From Bdellovibrionales bacterium (GTDB lineage Bacteria; Bdellovibrionota; Bdellovibrionia; Bdellovibrionales; UBA1609): DNA of 32,000 nucleotides. The stretch lies in NCBI GenBank assembly GCA_965247685.1, contig OZ252021.1:600001-632000 (forward strand), written 5' to 3'. The first letter of the stretch is position 1; every line of letters starts with the position of its first letter. The translations under genes and the position numbers were made by a program. Under the pieces are notes generated by a model, which was not told the DNA's origin, did no database searches, and saw nothing but the letters and a program-made list of their open reading frames with translations. Positions 8,382 through 27,751 of this stretch are shown piece after piece.

Positions 8382-8975
8382 GAAAAAAATCGGATAAAGA
8401 TATAAGAAGTAGTTTTAAGGAAGAAAGAAATCTATCTTTTTGGCAGCGACTTTTTTTTCCAAAAATCTTCTAATTGATAATAACTTCTAAGATAATCATA
8501 AAAAATATGTATTATTAGGAAATGATAATCGAGAACTATCCATTGAGACAAAGCTTCTCCTTCTACATGCTTAGGTACAAGTCCATATTTATTTTTTATG
8601 TAATCTTGAAGAGCTAAGGATAGAGCCTGCACATGACGAGTGTTAAGCCCTGAAAGGGTTAAAATATTTTCATATACAGCTTCTTCAAAAGAAAACCATT
8701 CTGGATGAAGAGCCCCTTTATCTTTTGAAAATGAAACTAAATCGTTGAACCAATCTTTTTTTGAGAGTGGTTCAATGTGCTGATAGTAGTTTTGAATTAA
8801 TGGAATCAGTTTTGAAGGAACATCATCTTCTATAGGTAATTGGAATTGGATTTTATGACGAATAAGATTTGAAGATAAGTATTGGAATTTTTGAGTATGT
8901 AAAAGATGAATCTGTTTTTTAGTGATAAATTCTCCTGAGTGTTTATCAAGTTTTTTTAAATATCTTTTTAAAAGA
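8382..8975. repeat. Direct repeat copy 1 (~594 bp) of the 3' part of nadD::rsfS plus downstream flank
   Basis: Matches 10957..11550 at a constant offset of 2575 bp. Identity is near perfect. There is one synonymous difference inside the coding part (ACT/ACG Thr) and a few mismatches clustered in the first ~50 bp, the non-coding end. Confidence 0.9.
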
Positions 8976-8989
8976 GGTTGATCTATCAA
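8432..8989 (-). pseudogene. Displaced 3' fragment of nadD::rsfS (C-terminal part of NadD plus the complete RsfS-like domain)
   Basis: The 185-aa ORF is identical to residues ~146-324 of the 324-aa protein at 11007..11981. Only its first ~5 codons, including a TTG start, come from unrelated island DNA. The NadD N-terminal HxGH part is missing. Confidence 0.75.
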
Positions 8990-9171
8990 ACCATCAAATA
9001 TCTAGAATTGATTATGCTGTCGATTATCCTATAAAGTTTGATGACTTTTCAAAGTGCTTTGATATTAGATATAAACAATCAATTAGAGAATACATGGAGA
9101 TGTCAAGAAACTCCACTTCAAATAAAAGTTCAGAGAGTTGATTTAAAGATTCAGCAATACGAGGAAATTAG

Positions 9172-9420
9172 ATTCTTAGATGTTCGAGTCCTAATTTAGC
9201 TAGGCTTATTGAATTTAGATCAATTCCTACTGATACGACAGGTTATGTTGTTCCTGTTTCTAAAGATGGTGTGTTAGGTAAAGTAACAATTGCAGAATTA
9301 TCTTCAGAAAATAGTCAAGGTGGCGGAGGTTTAAGTAGAACGCAAGTTGATGCCAGAGTCAGGGATACAGTTGAGGATTGGGCTGAGGTTAGTAATTCAG
9401 CTTACTGTAAAGGAATCTAA
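9172..9420 (+). pseudogene. Orphan 3' gene fragment (unknown function, no start codon)
   Basis: An 82-codon open frame without any Met, ending at TAA 9418-9420 (…IPTDTTGYVVPVSKDGVLGKVTIAELSSENSQGGGGLSRTQVDARVRDTVEDWAEV…). It is preceded by an in-frame TAG. To me it is reminiscent of phage structural/fibre-like tails, but I cannot assign it. Confidence 0.35.
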
Positions 9421-9435
9421 GCAAAAAATTCATTT

Positions 9436-10518
9436 CTAAGTTTTTAAACATTTCAACATTCCATGATTATAATAAAGTATATATTTCCCAGATCGTTTTT
9501 TCTCTAATAGACCAGCTTTTTCTAAATCAGATAAGTATTTACTAGCTGTTTGATAGGTTATGTTTAATTTCTTACCCACAGCAGTTGGATAAGTTACAGG
9601 ATAAGTAAATAAATATTCTAGCAGCTCTTGGTTATAATTTAATTTATGTTTAGATTTAAGAATTTTTTTCATCTTATTTTTTTCTTCTATTATATCCGTG
9701 ATAACCTTTCGGGTAACTTCAGTTTGCCTGTGGAAAGCTTTCAGCATGAATTTAATAAACGTCAGCCAATGACCTGATTTTGTAATATTCAACAAACCAG
9801 AGTAATACTTTTGCCTGTTCTTAATAAGATAACCACTAACATACAACACAGGCCAATCAAGAAGTTTATAAAGTACCATCTGTAACACAACTAGTATTCT
9901 TCCTGTTCTTCCATTACCATCTAAAAAGGGGTGTATAGCTTCAAACTGATAATGGCTGATAGCTATTTTAATTAAAGGATCTATTTCTTTGTGTGAAGAA
10001 TGAATATAGTTCTCCCAGTTGCCCATTAAATCATTTATATGCCTTGGTGTAGGAGGCGTATAAATGGTTTTCGAATCCTCCACAATTTTATTTTCTTGTT
10101 TTTTAAAATACCCACCGTTTGACATGAGTTGACTGTGTATATCTAAGATAACTCTCGTTGGAAGAGATTGATAATTTTTAAGAGATTGAAATCCTCTATG
10201 AAGAGCATCTTTATATCTAAGAGTTTCTTTGCTATTGGGGTCTTTTTTCTTATCCAGCTTTATTTGAGCTTCTAAAAGTGTTTCAATAGTTGTATGAATT
10301 CCTTCTATTGCAGAACTGGATACACTTTCCTGTAAGATAGGAATATTCATTAAAAGAGAATAAGGATTTGGGATAGCTTGGCACAATCCATTTAGTTCAC
10401 CAATTGCTCTATTAGCTTTTATGGTGAGTTGTATTAGTTCTGGCTCAAGTAAATCCTCTTGTTTGAGATCAGGAGGTAACAGAGGTAAATCAAAAGAATA
10501 ATTAGGATTAAAAGTCAT
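9436..10518 (-). CDS. fic: Fic/DOC (Fido) family protein, class II type with a C-terminal winged-helix domain
   Basis: 360-aa ORF with the canonical Fic motif HPFLDGNGRTGR. It has an N-terminal Fic_N-like region carrying the inhibitory SxxxEG motif (SSAIEG). The C-terminus is wHTH-like (TYQTASKYLSDLEKAGLLEKKRSGKYILYYN). Confidence 0.9.
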   Translation of the reverse strand: MTFNPNYSFDLPLLPPDLKQEDLLEPELIQLTIKANRAIGELNGLCQAIPNPYSLLMNIPILQESVSSSAIEGIHTTIETLLEAQIKLDKKKDPNSKETLRYKDALHRGFQSLKNYQSLPTRVILDIHSQLMSNGGYFKKQENKIVEDSKTIYTPPTPRHINDLMGNWENYIHSSHKEIDPLIKIAISHYQFEAIHPFLDGNGRTGRILVVLQMVLYKLLDWPVLYVSGYLIKNRQKYYSGLLNITKSGHWLTFIKFMLKAFHRQTEVTRKVITDIIEEKNKMKKILKSKHKLNYNQELLEYLFTYPVTYPTAVGKKLNITYQTASKYLSDLEKAGLLEKKRSGKYILYYNHGMLKCLKT

Positions 10519-10579
10519 CTCTTAGGTTGCCAAAAATGATATACCTTTACTTAAAATACATCGATTTTTTATAGTTTTC

Positions 10580-10605
10580 TTAATATATTATAACCAATAT
10601 ATTAA
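10580..10605. promoter_or_regulatory. Perfect 10-bp inverted repeat upstream of fic (candidate operator)
   Basis: TTAATATATT-ataacc-AATATATTAA lies 62-87 nt upstream of the fic start codon. The sequence is AT-only, so chance occurrence in this AT-rich spacer is possible. Confidence 0.25.
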
Positions 10606-10956
10606 ATTTTTGTCAATTTTTTAATGTATTAATCTCTCATATTAAAAGAATCTATATTCGATACGATGGTAAAAACTTAGTTTTTAGGGTTCCTTTAGGG
10701 GTTTCATTCCAATTTTGAGAATTTTTCACCTTAGATTTTTTTATTTACATTTCAGAATCAACTGATATTTTTTCTTTTTTTTCAATGTATTTAACCCATT
10801 GATACATTTTATATTGGAAAAAGTTAGCGTCCTTAATAACAGTCTCTAATATAGATAGAGGCCTAACTAACAAGATCATAATACATTTAGCAGAGGTTTT
10901 TCCTTATCTGGGCTGGGGTGTTAAAACTAACGCTCCGAAATTGGCTGAAATAGCAA

Positions 10957-11550
10957 GAAAAAAATTGGATAAAGATATAAGAAGTGGCTTTAAGGAAGAA
11001 AGAAATCTATCTTTTTGGCAGCGACTTTTTTTTCCAAAAATCTTCTAATTGATAATAACTTCTAAGATAATCATAAAAAATATGTATTATTAGGAAATGA
11101 TAATCGAGAACTATCCATTGAGACAAAGCTTCTCCTTCTACATGCTTAGGTACAAGTCCATATTTATTTTTTATGTAATCTTGAAGAGCTAAGGATAGAG
11201 CCTGCACATGACGAGTGTTAAGCCCTGAAAGGGTTAAAATATTTTCATATACAGCTTCTTCAAAAGAAAACCATTCTGGATGAAGAGCCCCTTTATCTTT
11301 TGAAAATGAAACTAAATCGTTGAACCAATCTTTTTTTGAGAGTGGTTCAATGTGCTGATAGTAGTTTTGAATTAATGGAATCAGTTTTGAAGGAACATCA
11401 TCTTCTATAGGTAATTGGAATTGGATTTTATGACGAATAAGATTTGAAGATAAGTATTGGAATTTTTGAGTATGTAAAAGATGAATCTGTTTTTTCGTGA
11501 TAAATTCTCCTGAGTGTTTATCAAGTTTTTTTAAATATCTTTTTAAAAGA
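10957..11550. repeat. Direct repeat copy 2 (~594 bp), part of the intact nadD::rsfS gene
   Basis: Matches 8382..8975 (see copy 1). Identity stops abruptly at 11550/11551 versus 8975/8976. Confidence 0.9.
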
Positions 11551-11988: not shown

Positions 11989-12459
11989 TTAACACTTAAG
12001 CTGAATTTCTAACATCTGACCTTTTTGACCTGGTCCCACCTTTGTAGGAGATTGATTGACACTGTTTTTAAAAAAGTGATTCCCTCTGCCACCTCTGCCC
12101 CCTTGAGCTAAAAGGTAAGGCTTATCCTGAGATAAAAGCATATCATGTTTTTTTGTTTTAATCCATGTATTCAAAGGAACCTCTATGTAGAGATCTTTTC
12201 CTTTTTGACCTGTTCTTCGGCGAGAGCTTCCCGGTTTTCCTGATTCAGCTTTGTATATTTTCTTATTTTTTAAATGAGCAAATGAATTAAGGTGGACATC
12301 AGCTTTCAAATAGACATTTCCTCCTCTTCCTCCATTGCCTCCATCGGGGCCACCTCTAGATTTACGACGAGAAGAAGCAAAACTCATACAGCCCGAGCCG
12401 CCTTTTCCTGATACAGCTGTAAATTGAATTGTATCGTTAGTTTTTTCTTTACTGAACAT
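11989..12459 (-). CDS. obg: Obg-fold (N-terminal glycine-rich domain) protein lacking the GTPase domain
   Basis: 156-aa ORF with Obg N-domain hallmarks ([36 protein letters not shown]). It ends at …MLEIQLKC*, where full-length Obg continues into the G1 P-loop. The start overlaps the rpmA stop (ATGTTCAGTAA), and nadD begins 8 nt after its stop. Confidence 0.8.
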
Positions 12460-19374: not shown

Positions 19375-21447
19375 ATGAAGAAGAAAATAAAAGAACTTCA
19401 AAAACAAATACGAAAACATGATTATCAGTATTATGTTCTAGATGATCCTATAATTTCAGACTTTAGCTATGATCAACTCTATGCCGAGCTTTTAAAGCTA
19501 GAGTCTCAATATCCTCATTTTATTGATAAAAATTCTCCCACTCAAAGGGTTCCCGGAAAGGCTTTAGATGCTTTTGAAAAGGTTTTTCATCGAAAGACGA
19601 TGCTCTCCCTCAATAATAGTTACTCTGTGGAAGACTTGTATCAATTTCATCAGAAAATATCTTCATCTCTTCAGCAAAAACAAGTGACTTATTTTTGTGA
19701 GCCTAAGCTTGATGGAGTGGCTGTAGAGTTGATCTACGAAAAAGGCCTTCTCACCTACGCTTTGACTCGAGGAGATGGAAAGGAAGGTGAGAATATTTTA
19801 GAGAATATTAAAACGATTAAAACAGTTCCTCTTTTTATAGAAGCTTTAAAAAAACAACCTGTTTTTGAAGTTCGTGCAGAAGCTTTATTATTTAAAAAGT
19901 ACTTTAGTGAAATGAATAAAAAACAGAAAAAAAACAAAGCAAAAGTTTTTGCTAATCCCAGGAATGCAGCCTCAGGATCTTTAAGAAATTTGAATCCTCA
20001 AATTACTGCGGATAGAAGACTCAGCTTATTTTGTCATGGACCGGGTTGGATTTCTAAAGAAATAACACAAAGTCAGAATCGGTTTTATAATTTAATAAAG
20101 AAGCTTGGTCTTCCTTGTTTGACCTATGAAAAATTTTCAAATTGGAATAAAAAATGGAAAAAACTTTCTGAACCTCTTTGTGTTCTTTGTAAGAATCCTG
20201 AAGATATTATTACTTATTACCACACGCTACAAAATTTAAGAAATAAAATTCCTTTTGAAGTCGATGGTATTGTAATTAAAGTAAATTCATTTGTTGAGCA
20301 AGGACAACTTGGGACTATAGCAAGAAGTCCTAAGTGGGCAACAGCTTTAAAATTTTCTCCCGACTCCGTTGTGACTCAAATAAAAGATATTCAGTTTTTT
20401 GTGGGACGTACAGGAGTTATTACTCCTGTAGCGGTTATGAATCCTGTTCCTTTAGGAGGAGTGGTTGTGAAGCAAGCTACTCTTCATAATAAAGGAGAGG
20501 TTCAAAGGAAAGATATTCGTAAAGGAGATTTTGTTTATATTCAAAGAGCAGGAGATGTGATTCCTGAAGTAATAGGTGTGGACTTGTCTCGGCGGTCAAA
20601 AAATTTAGCATCTTTTAAAGTTCCTAAAAAATGTCCCATCTGCCGCCTAGATGTTATAGAGGTGGATGATCTTTTATATTGTTCGAATCCTCAATGTGAT
20701 GGTGTGATTTTAAGGAAACTCCAACATTTTTTCTCTAAACCTTGTATGAATATTGAATTCTTAGGGGATCGTCTTGTGGAGCAGTTGTATGATGAGAAAC
20801 TTATTAAAAGCTATTCTGATATTTATAAGCTTAAAAAAGATCAAATAGAAAAATTAGAGGGAATGGGAGCTATTTCATCACAAAATATCATTAAAAGTAT
20901 TAATGAAAGCAAAAAAACATCTTTTGGGCGTTTTTTATTTGCTTTAGGTATTCGTCATGTTGGAGAGCAAATTGCTCTGAAGTTAGGGGATTATTTTGGT
21001 CCCCATCACAAGGGCTTTCAGAAGTTGTTAAAAAGTACTCAAGAAGAGCTGGTCCAGATAGAAGATGTAGGGTCTGTCGTAGCTCAGTCGATTGTATTAG
21101 AACTTCAAAAACTTAGACCTGAAATTCATAAGCTTTTTGAGCAAGGTGTTCAGATTATATCACCAAAAATTAAAGCTCAAACCTCTCACCAACCTTTAGC
21201 AAAAAAAAGTTTTGTGATTACGGGAAGCTTTGCAATTACAAGAAGGGAGATAGAAAACATTATCCGTGAAAACGGAGGCCAAGCTACTCAATCGGTCAGT
21301 CGTAAGACAAGCTACCTGCTGTGCGGTGAAAAAGCAGGTTCTAAGTATAATAAAGCACGAGAACTTAAGATCCCAGTAATAGACTGGAATCAGTTTCAAC
21401 GCATCCTGCGAGAAAATAAACTCTTAAGAATCAGAACTAAGATTTAA
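19375..21447 (+). CDS. ligA: NAD-dependent DNA ligase
   Basis: 690-aa ORF with the adenylation motif (CEPKLDGVAVEL), an OB fold, a Cys4 zinc finger (CPICRLDV…CSNPQC), HhH repeats and a C-terminal BRCT domain (FVITGSF…KARELKIPVIDWNQF). Confidence 0.95.
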   Translation: MKKKIKELQKQIRKHDYQYYVLDDPIISDFSYDQLYAELLKLESQYPHFIDKNSPTQRVPGKALDAFEKVFHRKTMLSLNNSYSVEDLYQFHQKISSSLQQKQVTYFCEPKLDGVAVELIYEKGLLTYALTRGDGKEGENILENIKTIKTVPLFIEALKKQPVFEVRAEALLFKKYFSEMNKKQKKNKAKVFANPRNAASGSLRNLNPQITADRRLSLFCHGPGWISKEITQSQNRFYNLIKKLGLPCLTYEKFSNWNKKWKKLSEPLCVLCKNPEDIITYYHTLQNLRNKIPFEVDGIVIKVNSFVEQGQLGTIARSPKWATALKFSPDSVVTQIKDIQFFVGRTGVITPVAVMNPVPLGGVVVKQATLHNKGEVQRKDIRKGDFVYIQRAGDVIPEVIGVDLSRRSKNLASFKVPKKCPICRLDVIEVDDLLYCSNPQCDGVILRKLQHFFSKPCMNIEFLGDRLVEQLYDEKLIKSYSDIYKLKKDQIEKLEGMGAISSQNIIKSINESKKTSFGRFLFALGIRHVGEQIALKLGDYFGPHHKGFQKLLKSTQEELVQIEDVGSVVAQSIVLELQKLRPEIHKLFEQGVQIISPKIKAQTSHQPLAKKSFVITGSFAITRREIENIIRENGGQATQSVSRKTSYLLCGEKAGSKYNKARELKIPVIDWNQFQRILRENKLLRIRTKI

Positions 21448-22151: not shown

Positions 22152-22220
22152 GAAGTCGTCGATAGTATATATATATGTTATTTTTTGAAATAAATTCTTA
22201 AGTATCAATGAAGGTAAAAG
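22152..22220 (+). promoter_or_regulatory. Conserved 5' cassette of the S8-HEAT family (copy A): putative promoter/5'UTR/RBS
   Basis: …GTCGTCGATAGTATAT…TTATTTTTTGAAATAAATTCTTAAGTATCAATGAAGGTAAAAG-ATG. The last ~45 nt are identical in all three copies. GAAGGT 7-8 nt before the ATG is SD-like. The function is inferred only from conservation and position. Confidence 0.4.
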
Positions 22221-24149
22221 ATGTACTTTTTAAAACAAATTTTTAAAGTGTCTTTTCTATTGATTTTTTTAAGCTTTAGTTTGTTCGCACAAACTAATGA
22301 AGAAGACACAGAAGCAGGTTCTCCTGCAAATTGTCCTTCTTGTGAGAATAGTTTTAGTTTGTTCCCACAAACTAATGAAGAAGATACAGAAGCAGGTTCT
22401 CCTGCAAATTGTCCTTCTTGTGAGAATAATTCTCCGTCAATGAGATTATCCAAGGATTTAGATTCCTTACGAAAAGCTAATGTGAAAACCTGTAATGTAA
22501 TATATTCGCCACATAATTCCATGAAAGACAGAATGGGGCTATCTGATTACTGGGCTCAAGAGCTGATAGGAGCGGATCTTTTAAGAGAAGAGTTAGAAAA
22601 AGTTCCTCCTCCTAAAACAAAGAATTTTATTGCTGTTTTTGACACTTCGACGAACAATCACAACGTTCATGTGAAGAATTTAATTTCTGATGAAGGCACT
22701 CAAGCTATTTTACCAGAATTAAAAGACCAAATAGTTTATGCTGAAGCAATTGATCCTCTTCAGTTTGTAGCAGCGGCTGAGCGTTTCCTCCGACAAGGGA
22801 CTCCTTCTTTTATCAATAATTCGGCGACTTATGTGTGGGAGAAGCTTTCGCGAACCATCTATGGGGCTTTTAAATCCTTATCTCCACCTTCTGTGCTAGT
22901 GACTAGTAGTGGTAATTACTATCCTATAGGTGTAGAGCAAATGAAAAGTGAAGCTTCAAAGGAGTTTTCAGCTATTATTGTGGGTAGCTTATCCCCCAAT
23001 GGGGTTGTGAGCAATCATTCTTCAGATGGAGAAGAAGTGCATATTCTAGCTCCTGCTGATGCATTTATCACAACTGCTGATGCTCAAGGGAATTATAGGC
23101 GATTTGGAGGCACCAGTGGAGCTGCTCCTTTAGTGACGGGTAGTTTAGCAGGATTTGAATGGCTTTCTGGTTATCATCCTACAGCCAAAGAGTCCAAAAT
23201 ACTTTTGGAAAAAACAGCTCTTCCTACACTCGAGTCCCTCGTGAAACCAAGAAGAAACGGGGTAGGTTTATTAAATTCCTATAAACTAGGAATGGTGGCT
23301 CAACGTTTAAAGCAAAAATGCCAGAACAAAAAGCCGTCTTGTTTTAAGAAAGAGATTGAAAATAATGAGAACTATATATTTAAAGTGGATCCAAATGTAA
23401 AGAATGAATTGTCGAGAGTGTTCCCTTCTTGTGCTATGAAAAATAGGTCTAAGCCACATGAGAATACAGTCCTATCTAGTTGTGAAGATAAGAAAAGAGT
23501 ATTTAAGCAGTTAAGAAAAGTAGCACTCCTTACTTCTCATCAAAAAGAGTTCTTAGATGCTTTAAGCTGTATCTATAAAGAGGAAGGATTTGATAGAAAT
23601 GCAAAAGCTTTAAAAAATTTATCTAGATTTTCTAGTTTCAAAAGAGAATTCTTTGAAAGATTATTGACAGGAATGATAGAGGATTTTGATCCTAATATGA
23701 GACAAGCAGCTGTTAGGCAAGCGAGTAAGTTAGGATATGAACGCGGCTTTCAATTGCTAGAAAAATCGATACAAACTTCAATTTATAAAGTTAAAAAAGC
23801 AGTTGTTAAGTCCGCGAGTCAGATGGGAGGTCCGAAAGGCTTAGAGATGTTAGAAAAATTGGGACAAGATTCAAATCCTGAAGTTAGAAGCATAGTTGCT
23901 TATTACGCGAGTCAGATGGAAGATGAGCAAGGCTTAGAGATTTTAGAAAAATTGGCAAAAGATCCAGACCCTGCAGTTAGACAAGCAGTTGTTTATTATG
24001 CGAGTCAGATGGGAGGCGATCGAGTTATTGAGTTGTTGCAACAATTAGCAGCTGATGAAAATCACAAGGTCAGAGAACTTGCAAAGTTGTTGCTCGCAAA
24101 GTTGTTGCTCAATGAAAAAATGAAGAAACGGAAAATAAATAATTCATAA
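22221..24149 (+). CDS. Secreted subtilase (S8)-like protein with 4-Cys module and C-terminal HEAT-like repeats (family copy A)
   Basis: 642-aa ORF with a Sec signal peptide (…FLSFSLFA/QT). The S8 motif series is present (IAVFDT, HNVHVKNLI, SFINNS, VTSSGNYY, GTSGAAPLVTGSLAG). A Cys module (KCQNKKPSC…FPSCA…SSCED) follows, then about 4-5 degenerate 31-aa HEAT/PBS-like repeats (DPDPAVRQAVVYYASQMGG). Confidence 0.8.
   Translation: MYFLKQIFKVSFLLIFLSFSLFAQTNEEDTEAGSPANCPSCENSFSLFPQTNEEDTEAGSPANCPSCENNSPSMRLSKDLDSLRKANVKTCNVIYSPHNSMKDRMGLSDYWAQELIGADLLREELEKVPPPKTKNFIAVFDTSTNNHNVHVKNLISDEGTQAILPELKDQIVYAEAIDPLQFVAAAERFLRQGTPSFINNSATYVWEKLSRTIYGAFKSLSPPSVLVTSSGNYYPIGVEQMKSEASKEFSAIIVGSLSPNGVVSNHSSDGEEVHILAPADAFITTADAQGNYRRFGGTSGAAPLVTGSLAGFEWLSGYHPTAKESKILLEKTALPTLESLVKPRRNGVGLLNSYKLGMVAQRLKQKCQNKKPSCFKKEIENNENYIFKVDPNVKNELSRVFPSCAMKNRSKPHENTVLSSCEDKKRVFKQLRKVALLTSHQKEFLDALSCIYKEEGFDRNAKALKNLSRFSSFKREFFERLLTGMIEDFDPNMRQAAVRQASKLGYERGFQLLEKSIQTSIYKVKKAVVKSASQMGGPKGLEMLEKLGQDSNPEVRSIVAYYASQMEDEQGLEILEKLAKDPDPAVRQAVVYYASQMGGDRVIELLQQLAADENHKVRELAKLLLAKLLLNEKMKKRKINNS
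22275..22430 (+). repeat. 78-nt tandem duplication (2 units) inside the 5' end of copy A
   Basis: Units 22275-22352 and 22353-22430 differ at only a few positions. They encode FSLFAQTNEEDTEAGSPANCPSCENS / FSLFPQTNEEDTEAGSPANCPSCENN. Confidence 0.9.
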
Positions 24150-24161
24150 ACAAATACCCTA

Positions 24162-24227
24162 GAGTTGTCGATAACGTATGTATATTATTTTTTGAAATAA
24201 ATTCTTAAGTATCAATGAAGGTAAAAG
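24162..24227 (+). promoter_or_regulatory. Conserved 5' cassette (copy B)
   Basis: GAGTTGTCGATAACGTATGTATATTATTTTTTGAAATAAATTCTTAAGTATCAATGAAGGTAAAAG is identical to 27686..27751. Confidence 0.4.
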
Positions 24228-25112
24228 ATGTACTTTTTAAAACAAATTTTTAAAGTGTCTTTTCTATTGATTTTTTTAAGTATTAGTTTGTTCGCACAAG
24301 CTAATGAAGAAGACACAGAAGCAGGTTCTCCTGCAAATTGTCCTTCTTGTGAGGATAATTCTCCTTTAATACAATTAACCAAGGATATACTGGGGTTTCC
24401 AAAAAGACTCTTCATAAATGAGTTTTCTTGGCTAAAGGATACGTTGTTGAGTCCACATACAAAAGGAAAAGCTAAGATGAATACCTGTGATGTAATATAT
24501 TCGACACGTAATTTCATAAAATCATCACTAATACCATTATCTCTATCTGATTACTGGGCTCAAGAGATGATAGGAGCGGATCTTTTAAGAGAAGAGTTAG
24601 AAAAAGTTCCTCCTCCTAAAACAAAGAATTTTATTGCTGTTTTTGACACTTCGACGAACAATCACAACGTTCATGTGAAGAATTTAATTTCTGATGAAGG
24701 CACTCAAGCTATTTTACCAGAATTAAAAGACCAAATAGTTTATGCTGAAGCAATTGATCCTCTTCAGTTTGTAGCAGCGGCTGAGCGTTTCCTCCGACAA
24801 GGGACTCCTTCTTTTATCAATAATTCGCTGAGTTGGAGTTCGCGAACCGGCTATGATGCTTATAAATCCTTATCTCCACCTTCTGTGATAGTGACTGCCA
24901 GTGGTAATAGATATCCTAGTAGTTGTATAGGGCAAATAAAAAGCGAAGCTTCAAAGGAGTTTTCAGCTATTATTGTGGGTAGCCTTTCTGCAACTGGTCG
25001 TGTGAGCACATTTTCTTCATCTGGACCTGATGTTAAAAGAATGGCTGCTTATTATGCGAAGGAGATGGGAGGCAAGGGCTTAGAGTTGTTAATAAGAGAA
25101 GATGACAAATGA
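24228..25112 (+). pseudogene. In-frame deletion derivative of the S8-HEAT family (copy B), lacking the catalytic Ser region, Cys module and all but the last HEAT repeat
   Basis: The 294-aa ORF is colinear with copy C up to …FSSSG (25025), then jumps to the last repeat (PDVKRMAAYYAKEMGGKGLELLIREDDK). This equals removal of C coordinates 28550-30055, which is 1506 nt or 502 codons (796-502=294). The frame remains open, so it could still be expressed as a non-catalytic protein. Confidence 0.7.
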
Positions 25113-25216
25113 TAAAGACTCCTATGTCAATAGGCTTTGAGTTATTGCAAACGATGATAGATGATGGAGATCCTGATATCAAAACACTTGTAAACCAGTA
25201 TCTATCTGAATTAAAA
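25026..25216 (+). repeat. Conserved 3' cassette of the family (copy after B)
   Basis: Near-identical to 30056..30246 (offset 5030). It spans the last HEAT repeat, the stop codon and ~105 nt of downstream sequence. The downstream part encodes an out-of-frame HEAT-like remnant (MIKTPMSIGFELLQTMIDDGDPDIKTLVNQYLSELK). Confidence 0.9.
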
Positions 25217-25239
25217 TAAAAAAGTAAGAGATGTTAGTT

Positions 25240-26016
25240 ATGAAATTAAAGTATGGGCGTTTCGTTTCAATTTTTTTTGTTTTATTACTTTCTCATTGTT
25301 CTGAAAATGAAGAAACTGCACCTTCCGATAATAATACAGAAGTTCAACAGAGATCTGTCCAAAATGAAACTAGAAAGAACAACCAGTCTGATATTACTTC
25401 TGAGAATAATGTAGGTGAGGCGCCTACTTCTACGACTTCAAATGGAGAAGGGGGTGATCAAAATGTAAGAACTGTAACTTCCGGTAATGAGAAAGAAGTC
25501 CAACAGAGATCTGATGATCGAAGAAATGAAGCTGGAAATAGCAACCAGGTTGAGAGTATTTCTGCTGGTGAGTCTTGTGTGTTTCATGGGGGACTATATG
25601 CTACAGAGGAGGATTTGATTTGGAATTGGCCTTGGTGGGGTTATCAAGCCCAAGCGATTGAAATAGCAAGAGATTCCCATAATAATTTGATCATCATGAT
25701 TGAAGATGATGAAAATAACAAAGTTTGTTCCATTTTTAGAGACGTTCAGTTTAGTGATGGTAACTTTGTTTTTTCATCTGTAAATAGCTATAGTGGTGCC
25801 AGAAACGATGAAAATTTTATGTCTGGAGTGGCTAAGATTGATTTTAGCTTTTTAGAGATGCAGACAGGCTCTTATGTTTGTATTATGGAAAGATTGATTG
25901 TCTCTAGTCCAGATGGTAACTCTGATGACACAGAGACTATAGAACTAATTGAGCCAACACCTATTGATCCAATGGCTGGAGATGAATTAAGGAAGTTTTG
26001 TGAGAAAGGTTTGTGA
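25240..26016 (+). CDS. Putative lipoprotein, family member D (unique C-terminal domain)
   Basis: The start is taken at the second ATG (MKLKYGRFVSIFFVLLLSHC), 9 nt after AAGAG. The signal peptide has a lipobox-like LLSHC, though His at -1 is atypical. A Ser/Thr/Asn/Glu-rich linker follows, then a ~140-aa domain with WNWPWWGY that I do not recognise. The ORF track start is 25231. Confidence 0.6.
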   Translation: MKLKYGRFVSIFFVLLLSHCSENEETAPSDNNTEVQQRSVQNETRKNNQSDITSENNVGEAPTSTTSNGEGGDQNVRTVTSGNEKEVQQRSDDRRNEAGNSNQVESISAGESCVFHGGLYATEEDLIWNWPWWGYQAQAIEIARDSHNNLIIMIEDDENNKVCSIFRDVQFSDGNFVFSSVNSYSGARNDENFMSGVAKIDFSFLEMQTGSYVCIMERLIVSSPDGNSDDTETIELIEPTPIDPMAGDELRKFCEKGL

Positions 26017-26186
26017 TTTTTTTGTGAGAATATTTTATCTCTCATCTTAGTTTGATAGCAATTCTTTTGGAAAATTAATTTCACTTCGACGTCACAGGTG
26101 AAATAACTTTGTTGATTTTCAGTTTAAATAAGAGTCTTCTTATAGTAGAAGCTAAAATTAGTTTTTTTAAGTAAGAGGTGTTAGTT

Positions 26187-26777
26187 ATGAAATTAAAGTA
26201 TGGGTATTTCGTTTCAATTTTTTTTGTTTTATTACTTTCTCATTGTTCTAAAAATGAAGAACCTGCAACTTCCGATATTACTTCTGAGAATGATGTAAGT
26301 GAGAAGTCGAATTCTGCCACTTTAGAAAAAGTAGCTGATCAAAATGAAGAAACTGTAACTTCCGATAATGAGAAAGAAGTCCAACAGAGCTCTGATCAAA
26401 CTGGGGCTGAAGAGGATACTGAGGTTGCTCAGACAGACGACTCCGTTGATGATAATGATCTTTTTAAAGTCTTATCCTACTGTGAAGATCAGGTATCGAA
26501 GGAGTTAAACAAAATATTCCTTTCTCCTAAAAAGGAACTCTTCAATATTTTAAGTAGAAGCGGGGTAGATTTAGAACGGGGCTATAAACTAGGAATTCTG
26601 GCTCTAGAATTAGGACAAAAATGCGAAAACCAGTTGTCGACTTGTTATATGCTGGAGATTGAAAATAAGAAGTGCGATATATTTGAGTTGGCTCCAAAGT
26701 TAAAGCAGGAATTGATTAGAAGGGTTCCTTCTTGTGCTGGTGTAGTAGACGCAATCTTAGCCAGCTGTGAAGAATAG
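26187..26777 (+). CDS. Putative lipoprotein, family member E (acidic linker plus the 4-Cys module shared with S8-HEAT proteins)
   Basis: It has the same signal/lipobox as D. Its C-terminus (GYKLGILALELGQKCENQLSTCYMLEIENKKCDIFELAPKLKQELIRRVPSCAGVVDAILASCEE) aligns with the post-protease module of copies A and C (SYKLGMVAQRLKQKCQNKKPSCFKKEIENNENYIFKVDPNVKNELSRVFPSCA…SSCED). It ends at a TAG where C has CAG. Confidence 0.6.
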   Translation: MKLKYGYFVSIFFVLLLSHCSKNEEPATSDITSENDVSEKSNSATLEKVADQNEETVTSDNEKEVQQSSDQTGAEEDTEVAQTDDSVDDNDLFKVLSYCEDQVSKELNKIFLSPKKELFNILSRSGVDLERGYKLGILALELGQKCENQLSTCYMLEIENKKCDIFELAPKLKQELIRRVPSCAGVVDAILASCEE

Positions 26778-26950
26778 AAAAAAATATTGAAGCAGTTAAG
26801 AAAAGCCATGTTCCTTACTTCTTCTAGGAAGGAATACTTAGATAGTTTAAGTTGTATCTATAAAGAGAAAGAATTTCAATGGTGGAGATTCCGATATCAA
26901 AACACTTGTAAACCAGTATCTATCTGAATTAAAACTGAATTAAAATAAAA
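26778..26950 (+). pseudogene. Collapsed remnant of an S8-HEAT 3' half downstream of E
   Basis: After the TAG the frame stays open for 49 codons (KKILKQLRKAMFLTSSRKEYLDSLSCIYKEKEF…), homologous to C 28997-29125. It then jumps directly to the terminal 3' cassette (GGAGATTCCGATATCAAAACACTTGTAAACCAGTATCTATCTGAATTAAAA), with CTGAATTAAAA duplicated. Confidence 0.7.
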
Positions 26951-26968
26951 AAGTAAGAGATGTTAGTT

Positions 26969-27544
26969 ATGAAATTAAATTACGGGTATTTCGTTTCAAT
27001 TTTTTTTGTTTTATTACTTTCTCATTGTTCTAAAAATGAAGAACCTGCAACTTCCGATATTACTTCTGAGAATGATGTAAGTGAGACGTCGAATTCTGCC
27101 ACTTTAGAAAAAGTAGCTGATCAAAATGAAGAAACTATAACTTCCGATAATGAGAAAGAAGTCCAACAGAGCTCTGATCAAACTGGGGCTGAAGAGGTTG
27201 CTCAGACAGACGACTCCGTTGATGATGAGCTTTTTGCAGTCTTATCTTACTGTGAAGATCAGATATCGAAGGAGTTAAACAAAATATTCCTTGCCCCTAG
27301 AAAGGAATTCTTAAGTATTATAATAAGAAGCAGGATACGTTTGATAAGGGGCTATAAACTAGGAAGGTTAGCTCTACGATTAAGACGCAAATGCCAAAAC
27401 CAGCAGTATTGTTATATGCTGGAGATTGACAATAATAAGTGTTATATATTTAAAGTGGCTCCAAAGTTAAAGCAGGAATTGATTAGAAGGGTTCCTTCTT
27501 GTTCTAGTGTTGTAGACGCAATCTTAGCCAGCTGTGAAGAATAG
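26969..27544 (+). CDS. Putative lipoprotein, family member F (paralog of E)
   Basis: About 190 aa and highly similar to E throughout. It has the same lipobox, acidic linker, 4-Cys module and identical terminal …ASCEE-TAG. The ORF track start is 26960. Confidence 0.6.
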   Translation: MKLNYGYFVSIFFVLLLSHCSKNEEPATSDITSENDVSETSNSATLEKVADQNEETITSDNEKEVQQSSDQTGAEEVAQTDDSVDDELFAVLSYCEDQISKELNKIFLAPRKEFLSIIIRSRIRLIRGYKLGRLALRLRRKCQNQQYCYMLEIDNNKCYIFKVAPKLKQELIRRVPSCSSVVDAILASCEE

Positions 27545-27685
27545 AAAAAAATATTGAAGCAGTTAAGAAAAGCAAGTCTCCTTACTTCTCCCAACAAGAA
27601 ATTTTTAGATGTTTTAAGTTGTATCTATAAAGAGAGAGGATTTCATCAGAATGCAAAAGCTTTAAAAAATTTAGCTAATGCCGCG
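27545..27685 (+). pseudogene. Remnant of S8-HEAT mid-region downstream of F
   Basis: The frame stays open for 59 codons after the TAG (KKILKQLRKASLLTSPNKKFLDVLSCIYKERGFHQNAKALKNLANA…), homologous to copy A around 23505-23625. Homology ends exactly where the 5' cassette of copy C begins (27686). Confidence 0.7.
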
Positions 27686-27751
27686 GAGTTGTCGATAACG
27701 TATGTATATTATTTTTTGAAATAAATTCTTAAGTATCAATGAAGGTAAAAG
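27686..27751 (+). promoter_or_regulatory. Conserved 5' cassette (copy C)
   Basis: Identical to 24162..24227. See copy A for the shared core. Confidence 0.4.

Follow-up and report, generated by a model that had tools for sequence, protein, structure and literature searches.

How does protein-coding sequence come to stand, in frame and still recognisable, behind a stop codon that two neighbouring genes have in common? The question is raised by a 32-kb segment of the chromosome of a Bdellovibrionales bacterium (GenBank assembly GCA_965247685.1, contig OZ252021.1, positions 600,001 to 632,000; hereafter the window, from whose first nucleotide all coordinates are counted), which has a GC content of 33.8%. 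From position 22221 onward the window holds an array of related genes on the plus strand, labelled A to G, and two adjacent open reading frames (ORFs) of this array, E (26187-26777, 196 amino acids) and its paralog F (26969-27544, 191 amino acids), stop at the same TAG codon. We find that both ORFs are chimeras of other genes in the array and that, with a probability slightly above 60%, they are young, lineage-specific products of deletion and recombination in the tandem array, that is, by-products of its turnover that are possibly translated, with the reading frame behind their stop codon persisting as a relic.

Chimeric architecture and origin of E and F

The array is dominated by two paralogs with 83% nucleotide identity, A (22221-24149) and C (27752-30142, 796 amino acids), both of which match Peptidase_S8 and HEAT repeats and are secreted. 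A encodes an S8 subtilase in which a helical module with four cysteines (approximately residues 353-421) is followed by the HEAT repeats. Between these genes lies D (25240-26016), an intact lipoprotein-like gene that has a signal and an acidic linker in common with E and F and ends in an orphan C-terminal domain of its own. E and F were originally described as joining a D-type signal and linker to a piece of an A/C-type protease gene, and the DNA matches and the module alignment bear this out. The leader DNA of D (25222-25333) matches 26169-26280 of E at 94% and its linker DNA (25387-25515) matches 26271-26396 at 81%. The C-terminal halves of E and F align with the segment after the S8 domain of A and C, the A/C-like fragment (26552-26876 in E, 27322-27681 in F) being 69-73% identical to 28768-29157 of C and 23249-23625 of A. 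Neither ORF retains the catalytic S8 core or the HEAT region.

In E, the signal-like N-terminus starts at 26187 and leads into a disordered acidic linker that extends to about 26456. An ambiguous stretch (26457-26540) separates the linker from the family-homologous segment, which the profile alignment places at 26541-26774, directly before the TAG at 26775-26777; in F the corresponding segment starts at about 27341 and the TAG occupies 27542-27544. The N-terminus common to both reads MKLKYGYFVSIFFVLLLSHC and has a cysteine at residue 20 (26244-26246 in E) by direct reading of the sequence. The proposal that this is a lipoprotein-type signal holds in part: a positively charged n-region, a hydrophobic h-region and a cysteine within residues 15-35 are all present, but D, E and F lack the canonical lipobox [LVI][ASTVI][GAS]C and instead read L-S-H-C (LLSH followed by the cysteine), with histidine at position -1 where the lipobox rule of PROSITE PS51257, applied by hand, asks for A, G or S. 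The signal-peptide coding region of E also contains a T8 homopolymer (26217-26224) that recurs at the same position in D and F; slippage-prone homopolymer tracts are common in AT-rich DNA.

The protease-derived part of the two ORFs had been described as a post-protease module of about 65 residues. This segment does align with A and C, but its homology to the protease genes begins upstream of the YKLG motif, at residue 119 of E and residue 125 of F in profile-supported alignments, and takes in the final strand of the S8 fold (...NGVGLLNAYKLG); it does not start at a domain border. From there on, both ORFs keep the module motif YKLG...KC...C(F/Y)..EI...F...P.C...CE. The 30 residues that precede the module in E might derive from the last S8 helix, or from a diverged second copy of the post-module helix, for which 26470-26555 resembles 26755-26852 at 68%; against the family profile neither candidate is significant.

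In a search of 1.84 billion representative proteins, the profile of the module matched 195 clusters, of which 139 reached an expectation value <= 1e-10. All matches that were inspected are S8-family proteins or frameshift-split pieces of such proteins, in which the module comes directly after GTSGAAPLVTGSLAGFEWLSGYHPT and, in many instances, before HEAT repeats. The module is a helical, four-cysteine C-terminal extension of a large subtilisin-like family found in metagenome genomes of the Bdellovibrionota/Oligoflexia; where relatives of A and C are named, the label is that of an Oligoflexia or Bdellovibrionaceae metagenome-assembled genome (MAG). In an alignment of 64 family members the catalytic residues (D141, H147, N232 and S299) are invariant, as are the four module cysteines and a fifth cysteine that lies in the motif LSCIY, after the position of the TAG. 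The AlphaFold model of A (mean predicted local distance difference test score, pLDDT, of 84.6) has a subtilisin fold and matches subtilisins, and shows after this fold short helices at residues 353-367, 372-380 and 392-400, a loop, and a helix at residues 421-437. Nothing in Pfam, NCBIfam or the PDB sequences matches the module, and D, E and F belong to no Pfam or NCBIfam family.

The arrangement of signal, linker and module seen in E and F was found in no other genome or metagenome searched, whether contigs were scanned with the module alignment or with E, and a search for homologs of D returned only D, E and F. These three genes are recorded only from this 1.28-Mb genome; together with A, B and C, they come from a single contig of that length. 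Short family proteins in other metagenomes were considered as stand-alone modules and rejected, as they turned out to be adjacent pieces of frameshift-split S8 genes. On several long-read metagenome contigs, S8 genes of the family are likewise frameshift-split into 2-3 adjacent ORFs, which are either pseudogenes or assembly errors. Relatives also carry S8 genes of the A/C family as tandem pairs. A literature search on the organism or the protease family returned nothing relevant.

The boundaries of E and F bear on how they arose. The two copies match each other at 88.7% from 26169-26878 in E and 26951-27645 in F, and then part ways. After E, the sequence (26879-26968) switches to an intergenic unit that also follows B and C and precedes D (26879-26934 matches 30191-30246 at 96%, and 26879-26968 resembles 25161-25239). 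After F, it switches to the 5' leader of protease gene C (27686-27751); these 66 nt recur without a mismatch in front of B (24162-24227, 100%) and, at 90% identity, in front of A. Both copies lack the remaining HEAT-encoding part of about 1 kb. Since E and F have their 5' fusion in common and differ in their 3' breakpoints, this part was lost by separate deletions; on the gene scale, the region after the TAG has decayed independently in each copy.

These junctions suggest a history in two steps, within an array that alternates secreted S8-subtilase/HEAT genes (A, B and C) with D-type lipoprotein-like genes. In the first step, a D-type signal and acidic linker would have been fused to the 3' end of an S8 domain, and the fused piece would have carried the helical four-cysteine extension together with everything downstream of it. 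In the second, two different deletions would later have removed the remaining HEAT-encoding DNA, joining the post-module region to an inter-gene spacer in E and to the leader of gene C in F. The products, if made, would be short exported proteins consisting of the signal, some 70 disordered acidic residues and a module of about 75-105 residues, the last being mostly helical and cysteine-paired.

Other members of the array have been reshaped as well. B (24228-25112) resembles C but has lost about 1.5 kb from its interior, in frame: 24162-25025 matches 27686-28549 at 94.6%, and 25026-25216 then matches 30056-30246 at 98.4%. Missing from B are the catalytic serine, the module and the greater part of the HEAT region; in its protein, some stretches resemble A and others C. 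Like E and F, it is a product of rearrangement within the array. In C (29354-30102) and A (23788-24016), the HEAT region consists of tandem repeats with a 93-nt period (8 and 2.5 copies, respectively, with 74-77% matches), a likely substrate for deletions such as those in B, E and F. A additionally contains a 78-nt tandem duplication (97%) at 22275-22428, in its N-terminal region, that repeats the TNEEDTEAGSPANCPSCEN segment. At the end of the array, G (30388-31026) encodes a signal, an (ER)n run that derives from 16.5 copies of the 6-nt repeat AAGAGA (30615-30714), and a domain whose homologs are the N-terminal pro-regions of full-length family members; A and C themselves have no such pro-region. 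G might work in trans as a detached propeptide, or be one more fragment.

Near-neutral evolution and signs of upkeep

For A against C, the ratio of non-synonymous to synonymous substitution rates (dN/dS) in the module is 0.24, compared with 0.65-1.34 for E or F against A or C. Between E and F themselves, the signal and linker differ by 1.9%, for which dN/dS is not informative (5 differences), and the pre-module and module regions differ by 14.4%, with dN/dS of 0.91 and 0.86, respectively. The translated module of E and F thus shows no purifying selection and evolves near-neutrally. Several properties are those of pseudogenes: truncation relative to the parent genes, a nonsense codon where A, C and the family consensus have a sense codon, and the near-neutral dN/dS.

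A number of observations suggest that the part of both ORFs upstream of the TAG is being kept open and folded, though the counts behind this evidence for upkeep are all small. Both ORFs carry neither stops nor frameshifts upstream of the TAG and keep their expression signals, namely an intact start codon and Shine-Dalgarno sequence (in E, GAGG 8 nt upstream of the ATG). They have stayed free of stops over 105 codons despite 45 substitutions, an outcome with a simulated probability of about 0.05, and the three indels that separate them upstream of the TAG (9, 3 and 3 nt) are all in frame, at least one of them lying in a triplet repeat. Of the 17 module columns conserved in the family, E and F keep 12-13, compared with 12 of the 28 variable ones (for E, p = 0.12; for F, p = 0.035), a preference that is absent from the 40 residues corresponding to the S8 core. 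All four module cysteines are retained, and two extra cysteines common to E and F keep the total even. Finally, non-synonymous change relative to C amounts to 0.30 per site in the translated module and 0.12 in the tail after the TAG (p = 0.002), at equal synonymous change; the corresponding dN/dS values are 1.2-1.3 and 0.5-0.9. Higher non-synonymous change in the module than in the tail is not what one expects of a uniformly dead fragment. These observations indicate that the short ORFs may still be translated.

The same observations carry the alternative that survives best, namely that E and F are functional, fast-evolving, membrane- or surface-tethered copies of the module under selection (possibly diversifying), serving as docking site, competitor or decoy for A and C, with the TAG having trimmed them and the tail again a relic. 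The AlphaFold model of E is ambivalent in this respect: the module core alone is predicted to be helical with pLDDT of about 80-85, but the model as a whole is poor (mean pLDDT 50.6). The lack of purifying selection between E and F, an architecture unique to one genome, a homology that begins inside the S8 fold and the histidine at position -1 of the signal all argue the other way, and we regard functional copies as a possibility that is unlikely overall. A more specific form would have rapidly diversifying, envelope-tethered modules act as competitors or docking sites that control where and when the secreted proteases act, a newborn regulator in which the TAG was fixed because the trimmed form worked better; this appears quite improbable. 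The role as decoys, docking partners or inhibitors that was originally proposed would, taken by itself, be doubtful, falling between these two assessments.

It is also conceivable that E and F serve as sequence reservoirs, donating tracts by gene conversion to diversify the module region of A and C in the manner of antigenic variation. The array is visibly mosaic, with B mixing A-like and C-like tracts, conversion-like tracts are seen between E and F (see below), and tandem paralogs occur in relatives too. Against this, E and F have start codons and ribosome-binding sites of their own, there are only two such cassettes, and in no tract does either A or C come closer to E or F (69-73%) than to the other protease gene (83%), which makes donor cassettes a very unlikely explanation. 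By-products of array turnover, possibly still translated, thus remain our preferred reading of E and F.

The common stop codon and the open frame beyond it

Both ORFs end in ...ILASCEE-TAG. Codon alignment of E and F with A and C confirms that the TAG column corresponds to CAG in C, as had been stated, and shows AAG in A; the consensus at this position is Lys in 171 relatives. The TAG arose through a single base change in AAG or CAG. The equivalent codon of A (AAG) encodes K424, which in the structural model lies in the first turn of the helix at residues 421-437; the TAG therefore cuts E and F near the start of this helix.

Beyond the TAG, no further stop is met for 49 codons in E and 59 codons in F, and the frame continues to read family sequence until the homology breaks, as originally noted. 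In E, the relic (26778-26878) comprises 34 codons homologous to the helix-rich post-module region of A and C (KKILKQLRK...LSCIYKEKEF), and the open frame ends at 26927; in F, it comprises 44 homologous codons (27545-27681, to ...NAKALKNLA) and the frame closes at 27724. The alignment to a profile built from 171 members of the family runs through the stop in both copies, scoring 74 bits with E and 97 bits with F. The final 15 or so codons of each tail are unrelated sequence, which fits the mean open run of 13.6 codons in random DNA of 34% GC.

Open runs of 49 and 59 codons have probabilities of only about 0.02 and 0.01 in such random DNA, but the tails were recently coding and their persistence is best judged against that starting point. 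About 7.3% of the single changes in the tail would create a stop, and of tails simulated with 8, 14 or 20 substitutions, 49%, 31% and 21%, respectively, had no stop. Neutral tails remaining open in 20-50% of trials make the open frame unsurprising for recently coding DNA; too few substitutions have so far accumulated to close it. Within the post-TAG stretch, E and F differ by 15.7% with a dN/dS of 0.86-0.93, and the tail thus shows no sign of upkeep as coding sequence. Two explanations had been offered earlier for a tail that has not decayed: very recent events, and a maintained pair of short and long products. Our results speak for the former and against the latter.

The original prediction further held that the nonsense codon predates the duplication of E and F. 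The distribution of differences between the two copies makes this unnecessary. In E coordinates, divergence is 2.9% over 26169-26480, rises to 21.8% over 26541-26687, falls to 3.4% (4 differences in 119 nt) over 26688-26806, and returns to 20.8% over 26807-26878. The near-identical tract at 26688-26806, whose counterpart in F is at approximately 27455-27573, holds the TAG. The longest identical run, of 62 nt (p = 0.0015), spans the TAG as read from the positions of the differences, and the longest stretch with no more than three differences measures 118 nt (p = 0.0001). This pattern points to a probable recent gene conversion between E and F. Since the TAG lies inside the conversion-like tract, it may have arisen in one gene long after the duplication and then been transferred to the second; the TAG is common to E and F either by descent or, more likely, through this recent tract.

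Could the TAG instead be read through to yield a maintained pair of short and long products? The open family frame and an A-rich context directly after the stop (TAG AAAAAAA) are what one would cite in favour. The TAG, however, terminates five other ORFs of the window, including rng and nadD-rsfS; release factor 1 (RF1, prfA) is encoded in the window at 105-1160; and the 32-kb window contains no suppressor tRNA with a CUA anticodon, its sole tRNAs being tRNA-Asn and tRNA-Ser(UGA). The RNA around the stop shows no fold better than shuffled controls (z = -0.38). Frameshifting at the A7 run was ruled out, since a ribosome would meet the stop before the run, and the family sequence is read in the zero frame. 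Taken together with the near-neutral tails, their different and unrelated ends and the ease with which neutral tails stay open, these results make programmed read-through hardly credible. In this genome TAG terminates translation in the ordinary way, and we hold with high confidence that the family sequence after it is an untranslated leftover and not part of a second, longer product. An open, family-coding frame past a stop is here the trace of a young nonsense mutation or gene-conversion tract and should not be taken as evidence of recoding.

Setting of the locus and comparison with known systems

The first two thirds of the window are filled with housekeeping genes, including prfA, prmC, murA, serS, rng, nadD-rsfS, those for ribosomal proteins L21 and L27, an OBG-domain ORF and the two tRNAs. 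An ORF at 19375-21447 is read as a DNA ligase, judged by a KLDG motif that suggests this assignment; in a scan of 185,579 species genomes its best match, in an uncultured Bdellovibrionales MAG, has only 45% identity, and therefore no close genome is available. A promoter scan was uninformative (33 sites against 29.6 expected), and no plus-strand terminator was found between the array genes.

Several further features of the window merit mention. A 594-bp direct repeat (99.3%; 8382-8975 and 10957-11550) duplicates the 3' part of the nadD-rsfS fusion gene. The insert of about 2 kb between the repeats (8976-10956) adjoins tRNA-Asn and tRNA-Ser, carries a Fic-type adenylyltransferase gene on the minus strand (9436-10518) and looks like an integrated element that brought along a copy of its target's 3' end. 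The obg-like ORF (11989-12459, minus strand, 156 amino acids) consists of the OBG fold alone and ends where the GTPase domain should start, with nadD starting 7 nt on; this gene may be truncated or split. Three ORFs of 101-105 amino acids run antisense, on the minus strand, to the 5' ends of A, B and C (22205-22522, 24212-24517 and 27736-28041). They resemble one another only because the sense genes are repeats, and most likely are not genes.

How does the locus compare with systems already known? Programmed read-through offers the most obvious likeness, an in-frame stop followed by an open frame with recognisable protein sequence. The tails of E and F differ from it in being unconserved as coding sequence and in their different ends, and the stop itself is an ordinary TAG with no stimulatory element.

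S8 subtilases with C-terminal extension domains are familiar from the kexin P-domain and the C-domain of Tk-SP. The module of E and F is homologous to such an extension, the family-specific helical four-cysteine linker between the S8 domain and the HEAT repeats. In E and F, however, it has been detached from both the catalytic domain and the HEAT solenoid, and their products would lack the fifth invariant cysteine of the family extension, which is encoded past the TAG.

For a small protein that regulates a subtilase, the natural precedent would be the trans-acting subtilisin pro-peptides and I9-type inhibitors. Like these, E and F are small, separate pieces of subtilase genes, here adjoining full-length paralogs. 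Unlike these, they derive only from the C-terminal extension, and the detached pro-region of this array is found in G. Should E and F prove to be expressed and selected, they would show a protease fragment giving rise to a novel exported protein, in a lineage of the Bdellovibrionota that has small genomes and about which little is known.

Recombination in tandem paralog arrays is known to yield gene remnants and chimeric ORFs, such as split or truncated genes in reduced genomes and the lipoprotein multigene families of host-associated bacteria. E and F resemble these in being truncated relative to full-length paralogs, in their mosaic junctions and conversion tracts, in a dN/dS of about 1 and in their restriction to one lineage. 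They differ in that the part upstream of the TAG carries no disabling lesion and retains start signals, in-frame indels and paired cysteines. The locus opens no long-standing question and is an instructive yet ordinary outcome of paralog-array turnover, providing a clean example of how one tandem array produces fusion genes, deletion derivatives and detached domains.

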